Origin: a virus
Length of the DNA: 36,853 nt
Virus genome (UHGV): UHGV-0090257
Reading direction: 5' to 3' (one strand)
The position numbers and the translations under genes are program-made. The notes beneath the pieces were generated by a model, which was not told where the DNA came from, ran no database searches, and worked only from the letters and a program-made list of their open reading frames with translations. How positions within the stretch are numbered: position 1 is the stretch's first letter; each line of letters starts with the position of its first letter. Shown one piece after another: positions 86 to 36,803 of this stretch.

Positions 86-1747
86 TTACCATCCTATAAT
101 GACATCAACACTGCCAACATCAACAGGTGATGAGCTAGTGTTTTGGAATGTAACACGAATCATGTCGTCTGATATTGCCAATACATCAGTTATAACCCCT
201 ATTGGCAGATCTCCTAACACCGTCATATTGATTGGAAGTTCATTTTCTATTTTATATCCAGTAGCTACCCTCTGAATTGAAAATCTAGAGTTTGGATTAA
301 TTGAACCAACATTAATTGTTGATTTAATTTTTTTCCCAGAAAACACGATATCATTGAAATCAACATGAGAGTTATTTATTAGCGAATCGGCAATAGAACC
401 TGAAAAATTGCTATTTATACCTACCTGTCTTAAAACTGAGTGTTTTTCAACCCTTACCCCATAATCCACTTTAGCTAAAGAGGCGTCGATATTATTTATT
501 GCGACAACAGCACCATCGACGCAGTTTATCGCATATTTTGCGCTCCCTAGCATAACAATATTTCTTAATGATAAATATGAGGAAAATTGGCTGGTAGCAA
601 ATGCTGAACCTTCACTTCCAACCATATAACAATCAGATATCTCTACAGATGATGAATAACGAGCCGCTACGCAAGACTGAGTTTTCGGTTTTATAATTGA
701 CAATTCTTTTATATAGCAAGATGAAGCATGCTCAACCTTAATTGAGTCTTCATTTGAATTGTATGATGAAAATGAAAAACCTTTCACGCTAGCTGCGTAA
801 ATACATTCCAGCGAAATATTTGCGTTAGTAATATGAACTTCATTGATACAAAACTGAGATCCAGAGCCAGAAACAAGAACTCCACAAACAGAGCCTCCAT
901 TTACAATTAAATTGTTTGCATCCCAAACTACGCAACTACCACATTGTGAATCAGGGTAGTATCCACCTCCGATAATGAGTCCGTAATCACCATCTGTTTC
1001 AATAGCAACATTTTTTATGCTGTATATATTTGATCTAAATTGTATTCCTTTTGTTGTTTTTATTATGGAATTTATTGGTTTTGCCACAACCCCGTTAACC
1101 GGGCCTGAAATTATACCATTGTGACTCATATCCAATGTTAAAACATTTCCATCCTTGGAAATTATCATCGCTCCACATGAAATGTCTCTCCTGCCAGAAA
1201 GTATACAATATTTACCAACATGAAAATTATCTGCATTCTGAACAGAAACTTTAAATATACCAGTCAACACATCATAAGAAACATCATATACATTAACAGG
1301 ACTATAATCCACACCCAATATATTCAGAGGAATATTATCAAACTCATCATAATGTGAATAACCATCAGGAATGTGAATATACTGCCCGTATTCTATCTGT
1401 GATCTAAGCTGATCGGGATCGTACTTCAGCACATTAGGAAAATAGAACTGCTGAGCACCGTACGCATCATAAACAGCCATAGAATGGCCATGTACAGTAA
1501 CGAATTTGGCGATCTGTCCGTTATATACCGGGTAACCAGCAGCGTTAATGATGATTGGTTGCGATACAGGAACGTGAGAACAGTCTTCGTTTTCCACATA
1601 AACCTGAATCTGGTTTTCAGGATTTACAGGGTCAGTGTCAATTTTACCGATATAAATTTTGCCATTAGCTACGGCTTTAAAAGAACGAGCCATAGTGAAG
1701 AGTTGCGAAGGCATGCTTACCACAACATTGGCTGTAATGTCTGTCAT
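86..1747 (-). CDS. Tailspike protein: P22-type N-terminal head-binding domain fused to a divergent receptor-binding domain
   Basis: 553 aa ORF; the first ~110 aa ([11 protein letters not shown]...[25 protein letters not shown]...ENED...) match the P22 gp9 head-binding domain as remembered; the remainder is Gly/Ser/Asn/Val-rich with repeated short strands typical of a beta-helix; last gene of the virion module. Confidence 0.85.
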
Positions 1748-1911
1748 TTAATTTGCTCCAGACGTAGCAATGCCGAACAAGATGCAACTTGCCCTGCATT
1801 GCACTAATGTCAGTTATGATTTGTTAATTATGAGATGAGTCTATGCAAAGAGATCTGTTGAATATTGCGCTCTATATATTTGTTTTTTGCACGTTCCTGG
1901 TGTTTGCGAAG

Positions 1912-3909
1912 CTATTCTGACAACGCATCAGACTTAACACCCTGCGTCATAGCGTTAATAGCCTTTTGTGCCTGCTGCATGGCTTTCTCAAACGCTGTTG
2001 ATCCGTGTGTGGTATTTGCCATTCGTAGCATTGCATTTCTGAATGGCTCACTCTCATAGGCGCGAGTAAGAAGGCCGTAGCTTACTGCTGCGCCAGTTGT
2101 CGCCGGGTTCATTGCCGTACCATATCCGATAATGAACGGGATAGTTTGCTGCCCTGTTGGTGTTGTTACTGCCGCTTTTGCAGCCTGCTGCGTGGATTGC
2201 AGGTAGTTTTTCAATCCCCTCAGGTAAGCAGCATCCTGCCCCTTAAATGTGATACCCGTTTGGTTTTGCAGGATGTTAAGCTGTCGAAGGAACTGGTCAG
2301 GGGATCCACCTGATTTCTCTATCGCCTTTCCAATGATGCCATTGCGCATTTGCGCTCTTCCAACGCGACCAACTGAGTTATACAGCGTCTTAATTTCCGA
2401 TTTGTTCTTGCTGAATAGCATGTTATTCACAACTTCCGGCGTCAGGTCGCCTTTCATGAGAACATTCTTCAGCCTGGTATTCTTTAGTTTCGCCGCTTCG
2501 TCAGCGTAGACGGCATTGGCCTGCTGATATTTACGAAGAGTATCATTGCCAAGATTCTGACCAATGGCACCATTGATATCGTCGGTCATCGCCTTATAAA
2601 CGCGCTGAATGGCAGCATCGGAACGGTTTGGTAACACTGGTCGCTCACCCTTCACGTCCATTCTGAACTGACTGCGCAGGTCGCTTAATTGCTTCAAATC
2701 CAGATTTACCGGACCATCAGGGCCAGCATTGCGAACAAGCTCATCACGATATGACTGAAGTTTTGAAATTGTCTCGTTATCAGCCACCTTACCAAGCTTC
2801 TGCAGATTAGATATCTCAGTATCAATCTGCTGAATTGCTCGCGCAGGCTGTATATTGACTCCCGCCATTGCATTCTGAACCTGCTCAAGACGGTTCCCAG
2901 CAGCACGACGAATTCCTGATGTTTTCGCTTTAAGGCTGTCAATAACAACTGCCGGATCGTACTCGCCGAATTTATCAGCAAATCTCTGCACCAACTGGCT
3001 TCTCGCTTCCTGTTGCGTTGCTCTCATTCCGCTTGTGCCAGCCAGAGGGATATTTTCTGCTGTAGTCTGCGCCATTTTTCCGACGCGGGAAGTTGGTTGT
3101 AACAGGTCTGTGGTGTGCAGAGGAACTCCTTCACGCTCTGCAAATCTGATAGCCTGTTGCGCTTCTGGTGCTATCGAACCACGAACACCACGATAAGCAG
3201 CACCTAATCCACGTCCGGCAGCGTTAATAGCACCGCCAGCCAGCACACCAACGCCTAAATCGGTGGCGAGTGCTTCCGCATCATCTTTCGCACTGTTTGC
3301 AGCAAGTGATCCAACTGCGTTTTCTGCGAGAAGGCGAGTTGCCCCCTGAGCAATTCGACCAGCAAGTGTTGGTGCCTGTGTTGCCGCTCTCTCAACGCCA
3401 GCAGGAGTGAGGTAAGGCAATGCTTCAGCAAACACCCTGCCCTCTGTCGTTTGTGGAGTCAGCGCGCCTTGCTGAAGGCCAAAGTCCTGCTCTAATCCCT
3501 GCGTTGTTACTCGTGGCGCTGGTTGATATGTACCATCGCCAATGCCGAGTTTACCGCCAGCCCATGCAGCCGCACTTGTTACAGCATCGGCAACTGATGC
3601 AGGTATGTTTGCCACGTTCACGCCAGCCTGCACCAGTCCGCGACCAGTCTCTTTTACTGCTTCGCCAAGATCAGACATAAATCCACTTTGCTGTGGTTGT
3701 TGCTGTGCTACTGGTTGCTGTGTCTCCACTTGCTGCACAGATGGCAATGGATAGGCAGCATAGAAAGCTTGCTTAGCCTGCTCTGCATTTTCTCCGGCTT
3801 GCGGGGCCACGACTTCATTGAAGTATTGCTCCTGAGCCTGCGCTTTTTGTTCTGGTGCTAACGCCTGATACTGTGGAGAGGCGATAACATCTTTCCATGC
3901 TTTAGCCAT
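1912..3909 (-). CDS. Ejection (internal virion) protein, P22 gp16-like
   Basis: 665 aa ORF in the gp16 position directly after the gp20-like ORF; Ala/Gln-rich, typical of P22-like ejection proteins. Confidence 0.75.
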   Translation of the reverse strand: MAKAWKDVIASPQYQALAPEQKAQAQEQYFNEVVAPQAGENAEQAKQAFYAAYPLPSVQQVETQQPVAQQQPQQSGFMSDLGEAVKETGRGLVQAGVNVANIPASVADAVTSAAAWAGGKLGIGDGTYQPAPRVTTQGLEQDFGLQQGALTPQTTEGRVFAEALPYLTPAGVERAATQAPTLAGRIAQGATRLLAENAVGSLAANSAKDDAEALATDLGVGVLAGGAINAAGRGLGAAYRGVRGSIAPEAQQAIRFAEREGVPLHTTDLLQPTSRVGKMAQTTAENIPLAGTSGMRATQQEARSQLVQRFADKFGEYDPAVVIDSLKAKTSGIRRAAGNRLEQVQNAMAGVNIQPARAIQQIDTEISNLQKLGKVADNETISKLQSYRDELVRNAGPDGPVNLDLKQLSDLRSQFRMDVKGERPVLPNRSDAAIQRVYKAMTDDINGAIGQNLGNDTLRKYQQANAVYADEAAKLKNTRLKNVLMKGDLTPEVVNNMLFSKNKSEIKTLYNSVGRVGRAQMRNGIIGKAIEKSGGSPDQFLRQLNILQNQTGITFKGQDAAYLRGLKNYLQSTQQAAKAAVTTPTGQQTIPFIIGYGTAMNPATTGAAVSYGLLTRAYESEPFRNAMLRMANTTHGSTAFEKAMQQAQKAINAMTQGVKSDALSE

Positions 3910-5204
3910 TAATCACCCCATAGTGAAGAAAAGTTACTGCCAGTAGTAGATTGTCGCCCTGGCATATTCTGCACCGGCTCCTGATAATCAAACTGTTTTT
4001 TAACAGTGCTCAACTTGCTTTCAAGCTGATTTCTAATCTTTCCGATAGAGTCACGAAAAGCCTTTTCACTCATTTTGGGGCTTAGGGCACCAACCGCATC
4101 GGATAATTTTTTACCCTCAGCATCTGAAAGAGCACCCATACCCTTCAGGGACTGCACCATAGGAAGGAATGTTTGAGCTTTAAAGGTGTCGAGCCTTGCT
4201 TCAAAGTTAGCCGCATCAGAGCCAGGAACTGTCGGAAACGCTGAGCGAATTCCTACTGCTTTTGAAAGGCCGGGGCTTTGCTCTATCTCGTTGAGAGAAT
4301 CAAGCGCGGCGCTGAACGTATCAACTGCACCCTGAGCGGCGGCCTGCCTGTCAGCGCGGGCTATGTCAGCCTTTTGCCGAACATCTGCCTGTTTCTGTTT
4401 TAGCTCTTCAAGCTTTAACTGATTGCTTTCTCTGGCTATCTGTCTGTCAAGAGCCTTTTCTTGTAATTCTGCTCTTTGTATTTCGCGGGAAAGAGCAGCA
4501 TTCTGTGCGCTGATGTTCTGTCCACGTATCTGGATGTCCTGACCACGCGCTGTTAGTGCTTCTCCAGCCTGATTGCTGCGGATTGTCTCTGCCAGCCTGC
4601 CTCGGTCAATTTCACGACCAGCCATCTTGTCCTGAACATTGAAGTAATCAATCGGACCAAGAGCAGCCATTCCAAGGTGATCAACAAACTCACCAAATCC
4701 TGAAGGGTTCTGCTGATACATCTGAGCAACGTTATTAGGGTCAACACCGACGCGAGTCAGTTCCTTGGCGTTGTTTTGCAGCCATGATTGCATTGCTTCT
4801 GGAGACGAGGCCGCTAGGCGTGCGCCAGCCGCTAAGGTGCCGATAGAATTACGTTGGTCTTCATCAATGAATCCCATGCCTTTACGAACGGATTCAATCT
4901 GGTCTGGATATTGAGTAGCTAACTGACGCAAAGCACCGCGATCACCAGACGCATAAGCATTAGCGTACGCCTGCTGAAATTCTTTCTGCCGCTGAGCCTG
5001 CTTTTCCTGCTGAAACACCCCTGCAATACCTGAAAGGCCTTGCAAAGCAGTCAGCCCAACATTGTTAGCGCCTGAACGCTCAATATCATTGTTCTGCCTG
5101 ATAAGCTGAAGCGTATTGCCGATGTCATTTACGCTCGGAGCGTTTGAGTTGACGCCGCCGATACCAGCCAACAATCCGCCATTTGATCCTTGCCAAGTAG
5201 CCAT
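3909..5204 (-). CDS. Ejection protein, P22 gp20-like
   Basis: 431 aa ORF; synteny gp7-gp20-gp16; start overlaps the upstream stop. Confidence 0.75.
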   Translation of the reverse strand: MATWQGSNGGLLAGIGGVNSNAPSVNDIGNTLQLIRQNNDIERSGANNVGLTALQGLSGIAGVFQQEKQAQRQKEFQQAYANAYASGDRGALRQLATQYPDQIESVRKGMGFIDEDQRNSIGTLAAGARLAASSPEAMQSWLQNNAKELTRVGVDPNNVAQMYQQNPSGFGEFVDHLGMAALGPIDYFNVQDKMAGREIDRGRLAETIRSNQAGEALTARGQDIQIRGQNISAQNAALSREIQRAELQEKALDRQIARESNQLKLEELKQKQADVRQKADIARADRQAAAQGAVDTFSAALDSLNEIEQSPGLSKAVGIRSAFPTVPGSDAANFEARLDTFKAQTFLPMVQSLKGMGALSDAEGKKLSDAVGALSPKMSEKAFRDSIGKIRNQLESKLSTVKKQFDYQEPVQNMPGRQSTTGSNFSSLWGD

Positions 5205-5213
5205 GATTACCCC

Positions 5214-5906
5214 TTAAAACAACGAGCCAAGCAATCCGATACCAGCACCAATTCCAGCGCCCCAAGGTGTTGATGTTCCCAAAAGGCTGGCAAGACCTGC
5301 ACCGGCAATCGCACCAGACGTGCCACCGCTAATTGCAGTCTGAAGACTTGATGGTTTATTGGCATTAGCAGCGGCAAGAGCTGCGCTTTGCTGTGCAATG
5401 CTGCTCATGTTGTTGGCGTACGTCTGCCCGGCGTTTGCCTGACCTTGCAGCGCACCAAGCCCAACGTTTGCCAGATTGTTGTAATTGCTCATCTGATTTG
5501 ATAACCAAGACTGACCGAGTGTCGGCGCGATCGTAGCCAGTTGATTGCTTGTGGCTGTCGAACCAAGTCCACCCGTCGCCTCCGCAGCAGCAAGACTCTG
5601 GTAACGAGCCTGACCTGCAAGGTCTTTATACTGCTGAGAGTTGTAATACTGATTAAGTGCCTGCCCCTGACCTTCTAAACTGGAAAGGTTCTGAAGCTGG
5701 TTAACATACTGCTCCGCAAGAGGCGTGAACGGAGCAAGGTTTTTCATGATCGTCTGCCACTGCTGATTTTGCAGGTCTGCTGCATACTTCTGAGCTTCTG
5801 CGGCATACTTTGCGCTTTTATCAGAACTGCCACCTTTCCCGCCTTTTTCAGGGCAATAAGGTTCCTCGCCGCGCAGTTTTCTGCCCAGCTTAAATGCATA
5901 TAACAT
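5214..5906 (-). CDS. Ejection protein, P22 gp7-like
   Basis: 230 aa (P22 gp7 is about 229 aa); Gly/Ala-rich C-terminus; synteny. Confidence 0.75.
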   Translation of the reverse strand: MLYAFKLGRKLRGEEPYCPEKGGKGGSSDKSAKYAAEAQKYAADLQNQQWQTIMKNLAPFTPLAEQYVNQLQNLSSLEGQGQALNQYYNSQQYKDLAGQARYQSLAAAEATGGLGSTATSNQLATIAPTLGQSWLSNQMSNYNNLANVGLGALQGQANAGQTYANNMSSIAQQSAALAAANANKPSSLQTAISGGTSGAIAGAGLASLLGTSTPWGAGIGAGIGLLGSLF

Positions 5907-5908
5907 GG

Positions 5909-6364
5909 CTATCTCCCGTGATTCAGGAAGTCGATTAGTTCTTCGCGTGTGGCGCTGTAAAACGTCACGTCATCCACGCCTTTGAAGTATTTCTTGATGG
6001 TTCCTACACGCTTAAGGCCAATCATTGCGCAGTACATCTGACCGTGGCGGAATTTGCGCGCGGCGAACGATGTGACGCACTGAACGGTGGTGTTAGTCAG
6101 AATGTATCGCCAGAACGCCAGCCCGATTTCCTTGCTGAATCCACGAACCTCTGGCAGGTACATGGCGTGGCAATCGAATGTCAGCGGCTGAATCTCCTGA
6201 TAGTAAACAATGCCGCCGAACTGCCCGTGCACGTTCACCTCAAAGTAACGGCATTCAGGTTTGTAGTCGTATCCATCACCGTTGTTGCTACCAGCGATAA
6301 TGTCAGGGTGATTTCCGACTGCTTCGATCAGGTCGATGTTTCGCGTTGGTTTGAATGTAATCAT
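5909..6364 (-). CDS. P22 gp14-like virion assembly protein
   Basis: 151 aa ORF between the tail needle and gp7-like genes, tightly packed (2 nt gap). Confidence 0.65.
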   Translation of the reverse strand: MITFKPTRNIDLIEAVGNHPDIIAGSNNGDGYDYKPECRYFEVNVHGQFGGIVYYQEIQPLTFDCHAMYLPEVRGFSKEIGLAFWRYILTNTTVQCVTSFAARKFRHGQMYCAMIGLKRVGTIKKYFKGVDDVTFYSATREELIDFLNHGR

Positions 6365-7065
6365 CAGTCAATCAGCCCATGTAATCTAAGTGCCGTTTCA
6401 AGCGCCAGAATACGCTGCCGCGCCTGCTGCAAACCTGTAGCGAGAGCCGCGACTTCGGATTGTGTGTACGTAGTGCCGACCGTGTATGACTGGTTAGCGT
6501 TGAATGAGCCAAGAAGTGGCGTACCTGTGGCTGCAGTCCATCCGGTCTGCCTTGCTCCAACGACCTGAATTCCATCAACTGAATATGATGTTTTTACATC
6601 CAGCGGTGACGCAAGAGACTGCGATTCGGTTACAGTTTTCGATACGTAATCACTCTTAATGTCAGATACATCGCTTTCTACGCCATCCAGTCTTTGGTCA
6701 ACAGTGACCAGATGCGCCTGAATATCGATAACCTCATCCAGCAAGTAATCAACATCGCTACGCAGTACGACTATCTTCCCTTCGGCAGTTGTTAACCTGA
6801 CCTCAAGTAGATTTATCGCTTTTGTGTTTGCGGTGATTCTTGCATCGTGATCAGCCAGTTCGACGTCCTGTTCATCGTTTTTCACCTGAGCATCGTAAGC
6901 GCCCTGACCAGCCTGATTTGCTTTCCCGGCAATTGCGCCGACATCAGCTCCCTGATTTATGACATACAGCAGGTAAGACTGGCTGAATATATTGCGTGGA
7001 AGGATTGATGTATCGAGTCGTGTAGCCTGAATGATTACCGGCTCATTGAGATTCGAATCAGCCAT
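6364..7065 (-). CDS. Tail needle (cell-envelope penetrating) protein, P22 gp26-like
   Basis: 233 aa, the same length as P22 gp26; [18 protein letters not shown] start and C-terminal ...[21 protein letters not shown] resemble gp26 as remembered; coiled-coil heptads. Confidence 0.85.
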
Positions 7066-16816: not shown

Positions 16817-17359
16817 TTAATTGGTGAGTCCGGGGATTACGGTTTGCCCGTGCTGTTCAAGGCGTTCAATTCTCGCCAGTAGCTGAGGCTTCTTAATTTT
16901 TCCCCAGCGATTAAGCAGGCGGCCTGACATGCTGGCAACATCCTTCTCTTTCATGTACTCCAGCATTACGGCATTTCTCTCTTCTTCAAATTGACGATGA
17001 CCAACCTGAAGCATGGCGTACATCCAGTTGAATGCGTTGATGTAAGCAATTTTGATACGCATTGCTTCTTTTTTGGTGTAGGACATAACCAAAAGCATCA
17101 ACCCATCCTTGCGGAGACGGTAGAATTTTTGCGGCTTACCATTCTGTAACTCATTGTTTTTATAGCAAAGCTCAAAGTTGAGCTTTGTATTAAACTCAGG
17201 AGGGCAAGCTTCTATGGTTCGCTCAATGTCACGGACTACGTTCTTCGGCAGCTTTCCAAATGCTTTTGCCACCATAAAAGAATCTGTAACCGGATCGTTG
17301 TTTGCTACAAAAATTAGGTCTCTGAAATCTATATCGTTAACAACGGTTGGGTAGTTCAT
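16817..17359 (-). CDS. Rha-family phage regulatory protein
   Basis: 180 aa; N-terminal PVTDSFMVAKAFGKLPKNVVRDIERTIE resembles the Rha domain as remembered. Confidence 0.65.
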   Translation of the reverse strand: MNYPTVVNDIDFRDLIFVANNDPVTDSFMVAKAFGKLPKNVVRDIERTIEACPPEFNTKLNFELCYKNNELQNGKPQKFYRLRKDGLMLLVMSYTKKEAMRIKIAYINAFNWMYAMLQVGHRQFEEERNAVMLEYMKEKDVASMSGRLLNRWGKIKKPQLLARIERLEQHGQTVIPGLTN

Positions 17360-22205: not shown

Positions 22206-22379
22206 TTATGTCGGTGATACTTCGTCGCTGTCTCGCCACACGTCCTCCTTTTCCTGAGGTAGTGGTAACACCCCTGTTGGTGTTCTTTCACACCGGAGAC
22301 ACCATCGATTCCAGTAAGGCTGTCCTGGTCGAAAGCGATCGTCTTCCTTTCGCTCTCCACATCGATAACAGTGCTTCAT
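22206..22379 (-). CDS. ninD: Small zinc-ribbon protein, NinD-like
   Basis: From the internal Met: [34 protein letters not shown]..., 57 aa with two CxxC pairs; NinD assignment rests on size, position and memory. Confidence 0.5.
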
Positions 22380-22966
22380 GCGATCACCATTTTGCATGGT
22401 TTAATCGCCATGCCGGGAGCCAGTTCAAAATCGGAGTCGCACTGATTTCCCCACATATCCCACCCGGTCACTTTGTCGCGGCTAAATAACTCACAGCGCG
22501 GCACGTCGCCAAGCAACTTAGCTAACATGTCTCTTACGATCGGTGGTTTTGCACTGTGCTCCATTCTCGGTGCGGTAAAGTGCTGGCATATTGAAGCGTC
22601 CATTCTCTCAGGCAACCGCCCTCGAACGGCAAACAAGCAATCCTCGCTATTTGCCCGGGTCATATGCCCCATTCCGATCGCACTGTTGCCTTTGTGCTTA
22701 TTGGTTTTGTGCCAAGTAAAGCCTTTCATAGTCATCAACCTGAATCCCCACGCCTCAATTACCTTTAGCGCTTCGGCTGGCTGTGTCGGCACCCACCACA
22801 TCGCTAACAAGCAAGATTCTGGATCCGCTAAATCCCATACTGGCAGTCGGCAAATGTCCTGAACATTCATAACATCGTATTTATGTCCAGCACCGCGATT
22901 GCCATCGTTGGCTTTGTCGCGATATTGCCAAGGTGGATCTGCGTAAATAAGTCGGTATTTGTTCAT
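22376..22966 (-). CDS. DNA N6-adenine methyltransferase, MT-A70-like
   Basis: 196 aa; catalytic DPPW motif in [10 protein letters not shown]; occupies the slot of ninC between ninB and the NinD-like ORF. Confidence 0.75.
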
Positions 22967-35452: not shown

Positions 35453-35644
35453 ATGACCGATACCAGCCTGATTCCTGAGAAAGAAGTGATGAACAAGCTC
35501 GGTGTTTCATCACGTCAGACAATCTGGAACTATACCAAACGGCACGGATTTCCGAAGCCAGTCAGAACCCACCCCAAATCATACCTTCGTGAAGCTGTTG
35601 AAGGGTGGATTCTTAACGGTGGCGTTAATCAGAAATGCTCCTGA
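35453..35644 (+). CDS. xis: AlpA-family excisionase / transcriptional regulator
   Basis: 63 aa; LGVSSRQTIWNYTKRHGFPKPV matches the AlpA-type HTH pattern (...STIYRLIKEGKFPKPV) as remembered; adjacent and convergent to the integrase. Confidence 0.7.
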   Translation: MTDTSLIPEKEVMNKLGVSSRQTIWNYTKRHGFPKPVRTHPKSYLREAVEGWILNGGVNQKCS

Positions 35645-36803
35645 TGTGCCAGAACAATTTATCAGCGTGAAGCTCATACGCTTTGCGCTGAGCCTCTATC
35701 CAATCGTGTTTATTGTATACGGACATTATCCCGCCAAGTTCATGACCGAGCATTCGCTCAGTAACATGAGGCTCGACATTCATCTCGGACAGACGTGTAA
35801 CAAGCGTTCTTCTGAAATCATGTGTTCGCCAGTAACCTATATCCATCCCTCCCCTTATTCTATTTACGAATCGGTTGGCTGCAGCGATGCTGATCGGTTT
35901 GTTTATGTCTTCTCCAGGGAAAAGAACATCATTGTACGTTGTCATGGCCTTATCGAGGAAAGGCTTAATTTGTTCGAAGATTGGACGGCGGATAACATTA
36001 CCCATCTTGCTATGCTCTTTCGGTACGGTCCATACGTTGTCCAGCAGGTCAAATTCTGTCTTTGTTGCCAGCCTAAGCTCTGAGAGCCTCGCCCCCCACA
36101 GCATAAGCATCTGATGAAGTAGCTTATTTGACGTAGACGCACGGCTTCTTTCAATAGCAAGCCAAATCTTAGCCAGTTCGTGATACGACAGTACCCGATC
36201 CCCTACCTCAGCGCGGGAGCCGAAGTCCCTTGGTTGGATGCTCATAATTGCGCAACTATCTATCAACTGACGCCGCATGCACCAACTTATTGCTGATCTT
36301 AGTTGACTTAGCACCTGCCTTGCTCGGCGTGGATTATCTCTTTCTTCTTCGGTAAGCAGGTCAACCCATTGCTTAACCGTGATAGAAGATGCCGGACGAT
36401 TAGGAAAGGCGTCATGCATGCGCTTCATAACCGTTGATCGGTAAAGTGCCTGGGTCTTTTCTCTGAGAGTTGTAGAGACGTAGTTGTCGAACCAGTAGTC
36501 GAGACACTGGGCGACCGTCATGGAGTTCTCCACCTTCTCTTCAAAATAGGTGCGTGGATCCGTTCCTGAGAAATAGAGCTTTCGCAAGTCAGCAGTGATC
36601 TGTCTGGCATCCTTCAAAGACAGGGATGGGTATCGACCAAGCCCAAGTCGATTAGGCTTGCCATGCCAGCGATAGCGGTACTGGAACTGGATGACCCCCT
36701 TCGGTGAAATTCGTACGCTGAGGCCATCGGCATCAGCCACTTCTTGTGGGCCCGAATATGGTTTACCATAAATAGTACGCAGTTTTGTGTCGCTTATAGC
36801 CAT
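35625..36803 (-). CDS. int: Tyrosine recombinase (P4-type phage integrase)
   Basis: 392 aa; N-terminal arm-binding type domain (GLSVRISPKGVIQFQYRYRWHGK), catalytic-region motifs HDFRRT and MLGH, and a tyrosine in SVYNKHD. Confidence 0.9.
   Translation of the reverse strand: MAISDTKLRTIYGKPYSGPQEVADADGLSVRISPKGVIQFQYRYRWHGKPNRLGLGRYPSLSLKDARQITADLRKLYFSGTDPRTYFEEKVENSMTVAQCLDYWFDNYVSTTLREKTQALYRSTVMKRMHDAFPNRPASSITVKQWVDLLTEEERDNPRRARQVLSQLRSAISWCMRRQLIDSCAIMSIQPRDFGSRAEVGDRVLSYHELAKIWLAIERSRASTSNKLLHQMLMLWGARLSELRLATKTEFDLLDNVWTVPKEHSKMGNVIRRPIFEQIKPFLDKAMTTYNDVLFPGEDINKPISIAAANRFVNRIRGGMDIGYWRTHDFRRTLVTRLSEMNVEPHVTERMLGHELGGIMSVYNKHDWIEAQRKAYELHADKLFWHIRSISD

Follow-up and report, generated by a model that had tools for sequence, protein, structure and literature searches.

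The tailspikes of the P22-like phages are modular proteins, in which a conserved N-terminal anchor is joined to a receptor domain; in P22, Sf6 and HK620 this is a beta-helix endoglycosidase. Sf6 gp14 and P22 gp9 are endorhamnosidases, and HK620 gp9 is an endo-N-acetylglucosaminidase specific for O18A1. In Sf6 the tailspike gene is followed by a convergent acetyltransferase gene (gene 14/oac). The P22-like prophage CUS-3 carries the same type of anchor and has a hexapeptide-repeat O-acetyltransferase gene (neuO) after the spike; its spike recognises the K1 capsule through an endosialidase domain of the beta-propeller type. Here the tailspike gene of the virus genome UHGV-0090257 was analysed. 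The window, i.e. the whole stretch of 36,853 nucleotides (nt), is the nearly complete genome of a P22-like phage (Lederbergvirus). The tailspike is a new example of the well-known module swapping, which confirms the modular evolution of these proteins and leaves the current understanding unchallenged. It is reasonably likely that the protein is a P22-like tailspike with an acquired beta-helix module that binds and cleaves the host O-antigen, predicted to be O166 of Escherichia coli. What is added beyond the known pattern is the O166 specificity prediction, a candidate active site, a linked acetyltransferase, the rarity and spread of the family, and an intragenic mosaic. The gene and the parts of its product, in amino acid (aa) numbering, are as follows.

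86 to 1747, minus strand: tailspike gene (open reading frame list; 553 codons, ATG start, stop codon at 86-88)
1409 to 1747, minus strand: P22-type head-binding (tail-attachment) domain, aa 1-113 (Pfam PF09008 and the solved structures of Sf6 and P22)
1400 to 1408, minus strand: module junction, aa 114-116, where the likeness to all other P22-like tailspikes stops
1115 to 1399, minus strand: N-terminal small all-beta subdomain of the receptor part, aa 117-211 (AlphaFold2 (AF2) strands E6-E89 in receptor-domain numbering; predicted local distance difference test score (pLDDT) mostly 85-97)
341 to 1105, minus strand: right-handed parallel beta-helix, aa ~215-469 (AF2 model; ~10 rungs)
850 to 862, minus strand: intragenic recombination breakpoint relative to the homologue P0002 (gene at L003 10001-11659), ~aa 297/298 (SGSGSQF before the break, C after it), seen as a drop in identity
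515 to 748, minus strand: conserved polar patch, a putative catalytic or sugar-binding groove, aa 334-411 (invariance across 8 sequences)
89 to 331, minus strand: C-terminal beta-sandwich domain, aa 473-553 (AF2 strands E357-E436)

The N-terminal ~110 aa had been assigned to the P22 gp9 head-binding type in an initial annotation of the gene, and this assignment is well supported. The Pfam family Head_binding (PF09008) was matched with E 7.6e-66 and 219.9 bits (cutoff 24) over model positions 1-113 of 113. Residues 1-115 aligned with Sf6 gp14 (PDB 7sg7) with a phmmer E of 3.6e-63 and ~93% identity, and the phmmer matches to the solved structures of Sf6 and P22 ranged from E 1e-63 to 1e-44, with ~1e-49 for the N-terminal domain of P22 gp9. 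Residues 1-113 attach the spike to the tail in the manner of P22 and Sf6, and the spike is presumably a trimer like those of the two phages. The DNA matches to other phages (Sf6, HK620, CUS-3, N7 and others) showed 86-93% identity, including 91.8% for the anchor of CUS-3, and were confined to gene nt 1-~343; the junction was therefore placed at aa 114-116. The megablast alignments stop at gene nt 334-357, and the PDB alignments stop at aa 115-117.

The remainder of the protein had been described as a different, AT-rich domain, and it is indeed a swapped-in one: the phage likeness ends at aa ~114-115, and the guanine-cytosine (GC) content is 34.9% in the receptor domain, 42.6% in the head-binding part and 46.8% in the remaining window. 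The description of this domain as Gly/Ser/Asn-rich is roughly right but incomplete, as the enrichment extends in equal measure to Ile and Val (Ser 13%, Ile 11.7%, Val 10.5%, Gly 8.7%, Asn 7.8%). The whole tailspike contains 12 Cys residues, 11 of them past the module junction, an unusually high number beside the 0.6% Cys of the other structural proteins. Codon 56 (window 1580-1582), which lies in the head-binding domain, encodes Cys (ENEDCSHV); Gly is found at this position in Sf6, P22, P0002 and E. coli strain 1190. With 553 aa the tailspike is also shorter than Sf6 gp14 (623 aa), P22 gp9 (667 aa) and HK620 gp9 (710 aa), as stated in the annotation.

This shortness, together with the unusual composition and the 12 Cys residues, might be taken to indicate a truncated gene, i.e. 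a degenerating or inactive gene left behind in a defective prophage. Such an origin is highly improbable. The open reading frame is intact, with a ribosome-binding site upstream and a terminator hairpin downstream, and the rest of the window is a nearly whole phage genome. All members of the receptor-module family align end to end and share a common C-terminal motif. The 35 member sequences found are nearly identical and lie on at least 15 contigs. Moreover, the structure model of the receptor part has three complete, confidently folded domains.

The receptor module, residues 117-553, has few relatives. It had no match in Pfam at E up to 10, none in NCBIfam, and none better than E 0.17 in PHROG. 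The sequence and profile searches of the PDB gave no match apart from one kinesin-light-chain repeat (E 0.029), which was dismissed as spurious. The full-length protein matched PHROG 8280, 'tail spike protein with colanic acid degradation activity', with E 1e-104, and this match vanished once the head-binding domain was removed; it was rejected as a guide to the receptor part. Annotation of such spikes by their best full-length match would be misleading, since the label stems solely from the shared N-terminal anchor. No match to the receptor domain was found by tblastn among 50,697 phage records, and the hhalign probabilities were 0.3% against the Sf6 spike and 0.1% against the HK620 spike, with no alignment from which catalytic residues could be transferred. 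Near-identity of this domain to a characterised tailspike, which would have spoken against the reading in the initial annotation, was therefore sought by tblastn, PDB and hhalign searches, and not even detectable sequence similarity was found.

Among 5,426 complete E. coli genomes the module occurs in one, strain 1190 (99.7% nt identity over the receptor-domain part), where the open reading frame is annotated as 'phage head-binding domain-containing protein'. A word-indexed search of 5.8 billion proteins returned three clusters; a second one, with the family alignment as query, added only P0008 and missed P0004-P0007. The exhaustive HMMER scan of 1.84 billion representatives at 50% identity revealed seven relatives, with identities of 77, 59, 39, 35, 31, 30 and 33%. 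On these searches the receptor-module family is real but rare.

The relatives are attached to different anchors. P0002 also has a P22 anchor, in a P22-like phage of the E. coli type. P0003 (59% identity) has a gp66-like Tail_spike_N anchor that shares ~70% identity with its counterpart in the N4-like phage G7C, and P0005 (35% identity) is a 442-aa spike without an anchor, at the end of a Vectrevirus-like genome (K1-5-type, T7-type). The P0008 gene follows giant internal-protein genes of an unrelated podovirus, for which no near relative was found in the phage collection. These G7C gp66-type spikes of N4-like Gamaleyavirus phages and the Vectrevirus (K1-5-like) spikes share the receptor module with the tailspike described here; their anchors, phage lifestyles and presumably their glycan specificities differ, and the homologues are uncharacterised. 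Exchange of receptor-binding domains across phage genera was described by Pas et al. (2023; PMC10408124), and the occurrence of the module on P22-like, G7C/N4-like and K1-5-like anchors fits that pattern. From these comparisons the receptor module is horizontally acquired and mobile between phage types. In the Vectrevirus-like phage (L012 8001-11337) the 442-aa homologue without an anchor is directly followed by a second, 640-aa spike with Pect-lyase and Peptidase_S74 domains, an arrangement in the dual-spike style of K1-5.

Exchange has also taken place within the module. Compared with P0002, gene nt 348-887 are 97-100% identical and the sequence beyond is 55-75% identical; for the proteins, the identity is 99-100% over aa 117-297 and falls to 58-64% over aa 298-553. 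In its C-terminal half, P0002 is nearer to the G7C-type P0003 (74-77%). The break at aa ~298 therefore places recombination within the beta-helix as well, a short way upstream of the conserved polar patch.

Structure prediction supports the suggestion of the initial annotation that the domain might be a glycan hydrolase or lyase, because the receptor part was predicted to have a beta-helix fold typical of such enzymes. The AF2 model, a monomer built from an eight-member alignment, has a pLDDT of 86.7 and a predicted template modelling score (pTM) of 0.76; it superseded a three-sequence run with a pLDDT of only 60.8. The N-terminal beta subdomain is conserved in all eight family members, whatever their anchor. 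The central right-handed beta-helix of the pectin-lyase-fold phage depolymerases is present in the predicted structure, and the C-terminal domain has a conserved DLPxG...D..xR..F.N motif. Comparison with the known spikes showed both similarities and differences. Sf6 gp14 (PDB 7sg7, 2vbk) is alike in its anchor (~93% aa identity over aa 1-115), its phage backbone (~97%) and the beta-helix of its receptor part; however, the receptor domains have no detectable sequence similarity, and the Foldseek template modelling (TM) score is only 0.22-0.29. HK620 gp9 and P22 gp9 share the N-terminal domain family and probably the logic of an anchor with a beta-helix endoglycosidase, whereas their receptor parts have no sequence relationship to the module. 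In addition, the tailspike of the window has an additional beta subdomain of ~95 aa ahead of its helix, ends in a compact beta-sandwich, and is 110-160 aa shorter than these two.

Over its full length, the module was matched structurally only by the tail fibre of the T7-like Escherichia phage IMM-002 (BFVD A0A384WW92), with a TM score of 0.64 over 435 columns. This fibre differs in being 932 aa long and only 15% identical, and it was absent from the results of both HMMER searches. Phage IMM-002 was reported to depend on CS3 fimbriae (PMC6301781), and its function is therefore not transferable to the receptor module.

Thirty-three positions are invariant in the eight family members, which are 29-78% identical, and 12 polar or charged ones fall within aa 334-411: D334, K337, E339, Y345, R363, Y364, E369, Q387, Y391, S393, R395 and D411. 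They recur every ~24-27 residues, which is the length of a rung in the model, so that they would stack on one face of four successive rungs; judged from this periodicity, they should share one groove. In the P22, Sf6 and HK620 endoglycosidases, the catalytic carboxylates are ~30 residues apart on adjacent rungs. This arrangement is established for HK620 and P22 and predicted for the present tailspike, in which D334, E339 and E369 might be the catalytic carboxylates and would be assisted by K337, R363, R395 and Tyr residues. The active site is contained in a single subunit in P22 and HK620, and lies between subunits in Sf6. Residues 117-553 would then bind the host O-antigen along the beta-helix and cleave the polysaccharide. 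Hydrolysis appears likelier than lyase action; the Lys, Arg and Tyr residues of the patch keep a lyase mechanism possible.

Alternatively, the spike might bind a surface glycan without cleaving it, as an adhesin-type beta-helix in which the conserved polar residues are sugar-binding. We regard this as rather unlikely, because the invariant E339 and E369 (~30 residues apart, on adjacent rungs) and D334 resemble the endoglycosidases of P22, Sf6 and HK620, and because a podovirus with a short tail must penetrate a long O-antigen layer. For a spike that cleaves the O-antigen, cleavage would let the virion descend to the outer membrane.

The identity of the O-antigen was predicted from the lysogens. 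Strain 1190, the only lysogen with a complete genome, has the O166 wzx/wzy cluster, which includes wzx, wzy, four glycosyltransferase genes and galE, with gne upstream and without cluster-specific uronic-acid genes. The O166 wzy gene was found in 18 of the 5,426 genomes, among them strains deposited as O166:H15, and the chance that a random single lysogen would be O166 is ~0.3%. In a second lysogen (SRR14092267) the prophage lies at a different site, next to dacD, and its integrase differs from the IntS/argW arrangement of strain 1190. The 4.6-kb host flank of this prophage is 100.0% identical in 11 genomes, all 11 of which have the O166 wzy; none of the next-ranked four genomes (99.9%) is O166. 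In strain 1190 the O-antigen locus lies ~16-25 kb away from this flank. The cluster of strain 1190 and the flank of the second lysogen therefore point to two independent integrations into O166-type hosts. The tailspike-acetyltransferase module thus occurs on prophages with two integrases and sites, in L001 (strain 1190, argW/IntS) and in L005 (next to dacD). The integrase of the window (35625-36803, 392 aa) is of the type found in L006 and unlike IntS.

On these genomic grounds the case for the O166 O-antigen as the receptor is good but indirect. The titles of two papers describe the repeat of O166 as a pentasaccharide (Si & Misra, 2015) and this O-antigen as closely related to Salmonella O66 (Liu et al., 2010). 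The target of the spike would then be the E. coli O166 polysaccharide, with a pentasaccharide repeat and a cluster free of uronic-acid genes; its sugar composition is deduced here from the gene content of the cluster. No O166-directed spike was found in the literature searched, including the SpikeHunter paper and Pas et al. (PMC10408124).

The module might also be a depolymerase for a capsule or another exopolysaccharide (K antigen, colanic acid), acting as a lyase with Lys, Arg or Tyr as the base or acid. The lysogens have a common O-type or an O-linked flank, P22-like phages with this anchor mostly use the O-antigen (known for P22, Sf6 and HK620), and the colanic acid label of the PHROG family came only from the head-binding domain; on this evidence from O-types, anchor and label, capsule specificity is considered unlikely. 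Cleavage of the O166 O-antigen is preferred to it, and several points weigh against this preference. The gene ugd adjoins the O-antigen cluster, and on gene content a uronic acid is thus possible. The O166 link is based on two lysogens, possibly of a single host lineage, of which the second was assigned solely via its linked flank. The receptor domain had no match to the Pfam families Beta_helix (PF13229) or Pectate_lyase_3 (PF12708); only the distant relative P0008 came near the Beta_helix threshold, scoring 25.3 bits where 25.9 are required. The structural evidence is a monomer model from eight sequences, in which placement of the conserved residues in a single groove derives from sequence periodicity. 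Furthermore, the closest phage relatives of the linked acetyltransferase include the K1 capsule O-acetyltransferase, which is not of the O-antigen type.

More tentatively, and with some doubt, the module might represent an unclassified glycoside hydrolase (or lyase) family with a distinct set of catalytic residues (D334/K337/E339...R363/Y364/E369...Q387/Y391/S393/R395/D411). It would be specific for O166 and perhaps for Salmonella O66, and the swap at aa ~298 would mean that the specificity can be re-tuned via the distal half of the beta-helix. If true, the module would add an enzyme family to the repertoire of polysaccharide depolymerases. The receptor domains of tailspikes determine which serotypes come within reach of phages, tailocins or diagnostic reagents, and O166 includes the diarrhoeagenic O166:H15 strains. 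The compact 437-aa module, which naturally occurs on anchors of P22-like, N4-like and T7-like phages, could be joined to further anchors in order to detect or kill particular serotypes.

The gene neighbourhood offers a further parallel to Sf6 and CUS-3. In every lysogen the tailspike gene is followed by a convergent gene for a hexapeptide-repeat acyltransferase of 197-201 aa (GC 34%), and the 85-nt spacer between the two genes is 100% identical in three lysogens. Position 1 of the window is the first base past the acetyltransferase coding sequence, and the partner gene is thus cut off from the window. The tailspike and a convergent acetyltransferase are arranged as in Sf6; the Sf6 Oac is a membrane acyltransferase, whereas the partner here is of the soluble hexapeptide-repeat type. 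With NeuO, the O-acetyltransferase of the K1 capsule whose gene follows the CUS-3 tailspike gene, it shares 33% identity; the endosialidase receptor domain of CUS-3 is unrelated to the beta-helix module. By analogy with these systems, the enzyme may modify the receptor in the lysogen: it would O-acetylate the same polysaccharide that the spike recognises, presumably shielding lysogens from superinfection. The acetyltransferase gene and the expression signals around the tailspike gene are listed here.

L001 21401-22006; L005, L006 and L007 7748-8341; convergent to the tailspike gene, left of window position 1: acetyltransferase gene
~12 to 40, strand not applicable: 13-bp perfect hairpin between the tailspike gene and the convergent acetyltransferase gene, which starts just beyond the window
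1756 to 1759, minus strand: ribosome-binding site GGAG, with an 8-nt spacer to the ATG at 1747 (sequence inspection)

The hairpin at 12 to 40 is a probable bidirectional terminator; its RNA fold has -19.5 kcal/mol and a z score of -3.07. It was not listed by the consensus terminator scan, because its stem has no T-run after it. The promoter and terminator scan of the window gave counts equal to those of shuffled sequences.

The remaining genes place the tailspike in a P22-type context. It lies at the end of the late operon, after the gp7, gp20 and gp16 ejection-protein genes, as expected for a P22-type tailspike.

1912 to 3909, upstream of the tailspike gene: gp16 homologue (96-97% nt identity to Sf6/HK620)
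3909 to 5204, upstream of the tailspike gene: gp20 homologue (96-97% nt identity to Sf6/HK620)
5214 to 5906, upstream of the tailspike gene: gp7 homologue (96-97% nt identity to Sf6/HK620)

The same identity of 96-97% to Sf6 and HK620 was found for the ejection-protein, needle, portal, coat and terminase genes of the window in general. The window also encodes an integrase, a CI-type repressor, RecT, NinG, Rha and an MT-A70 methylase, and the source is an Sf6/HK620-like temperate E. coli phage. No tRNA was found in the window. The gene for the MT-A70 family DNA methyltransferase (22376-22966, minus strand; E 4.8e-25) lies in the nin region, and that for the Rha/ORF11CD3 regulatory protein (16817-17359, minus strand) sits, as morons typically do, between the lysis cassette and the terminase genes. 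At the needle position, the open reading frame 6364-7065 (minus strand, 233 aa) has no Pfam match, whereas its counterpart in strain 1190 and L003 is a 317-aa 'tail needle knob protein'; the needle is therefore another swapped module.
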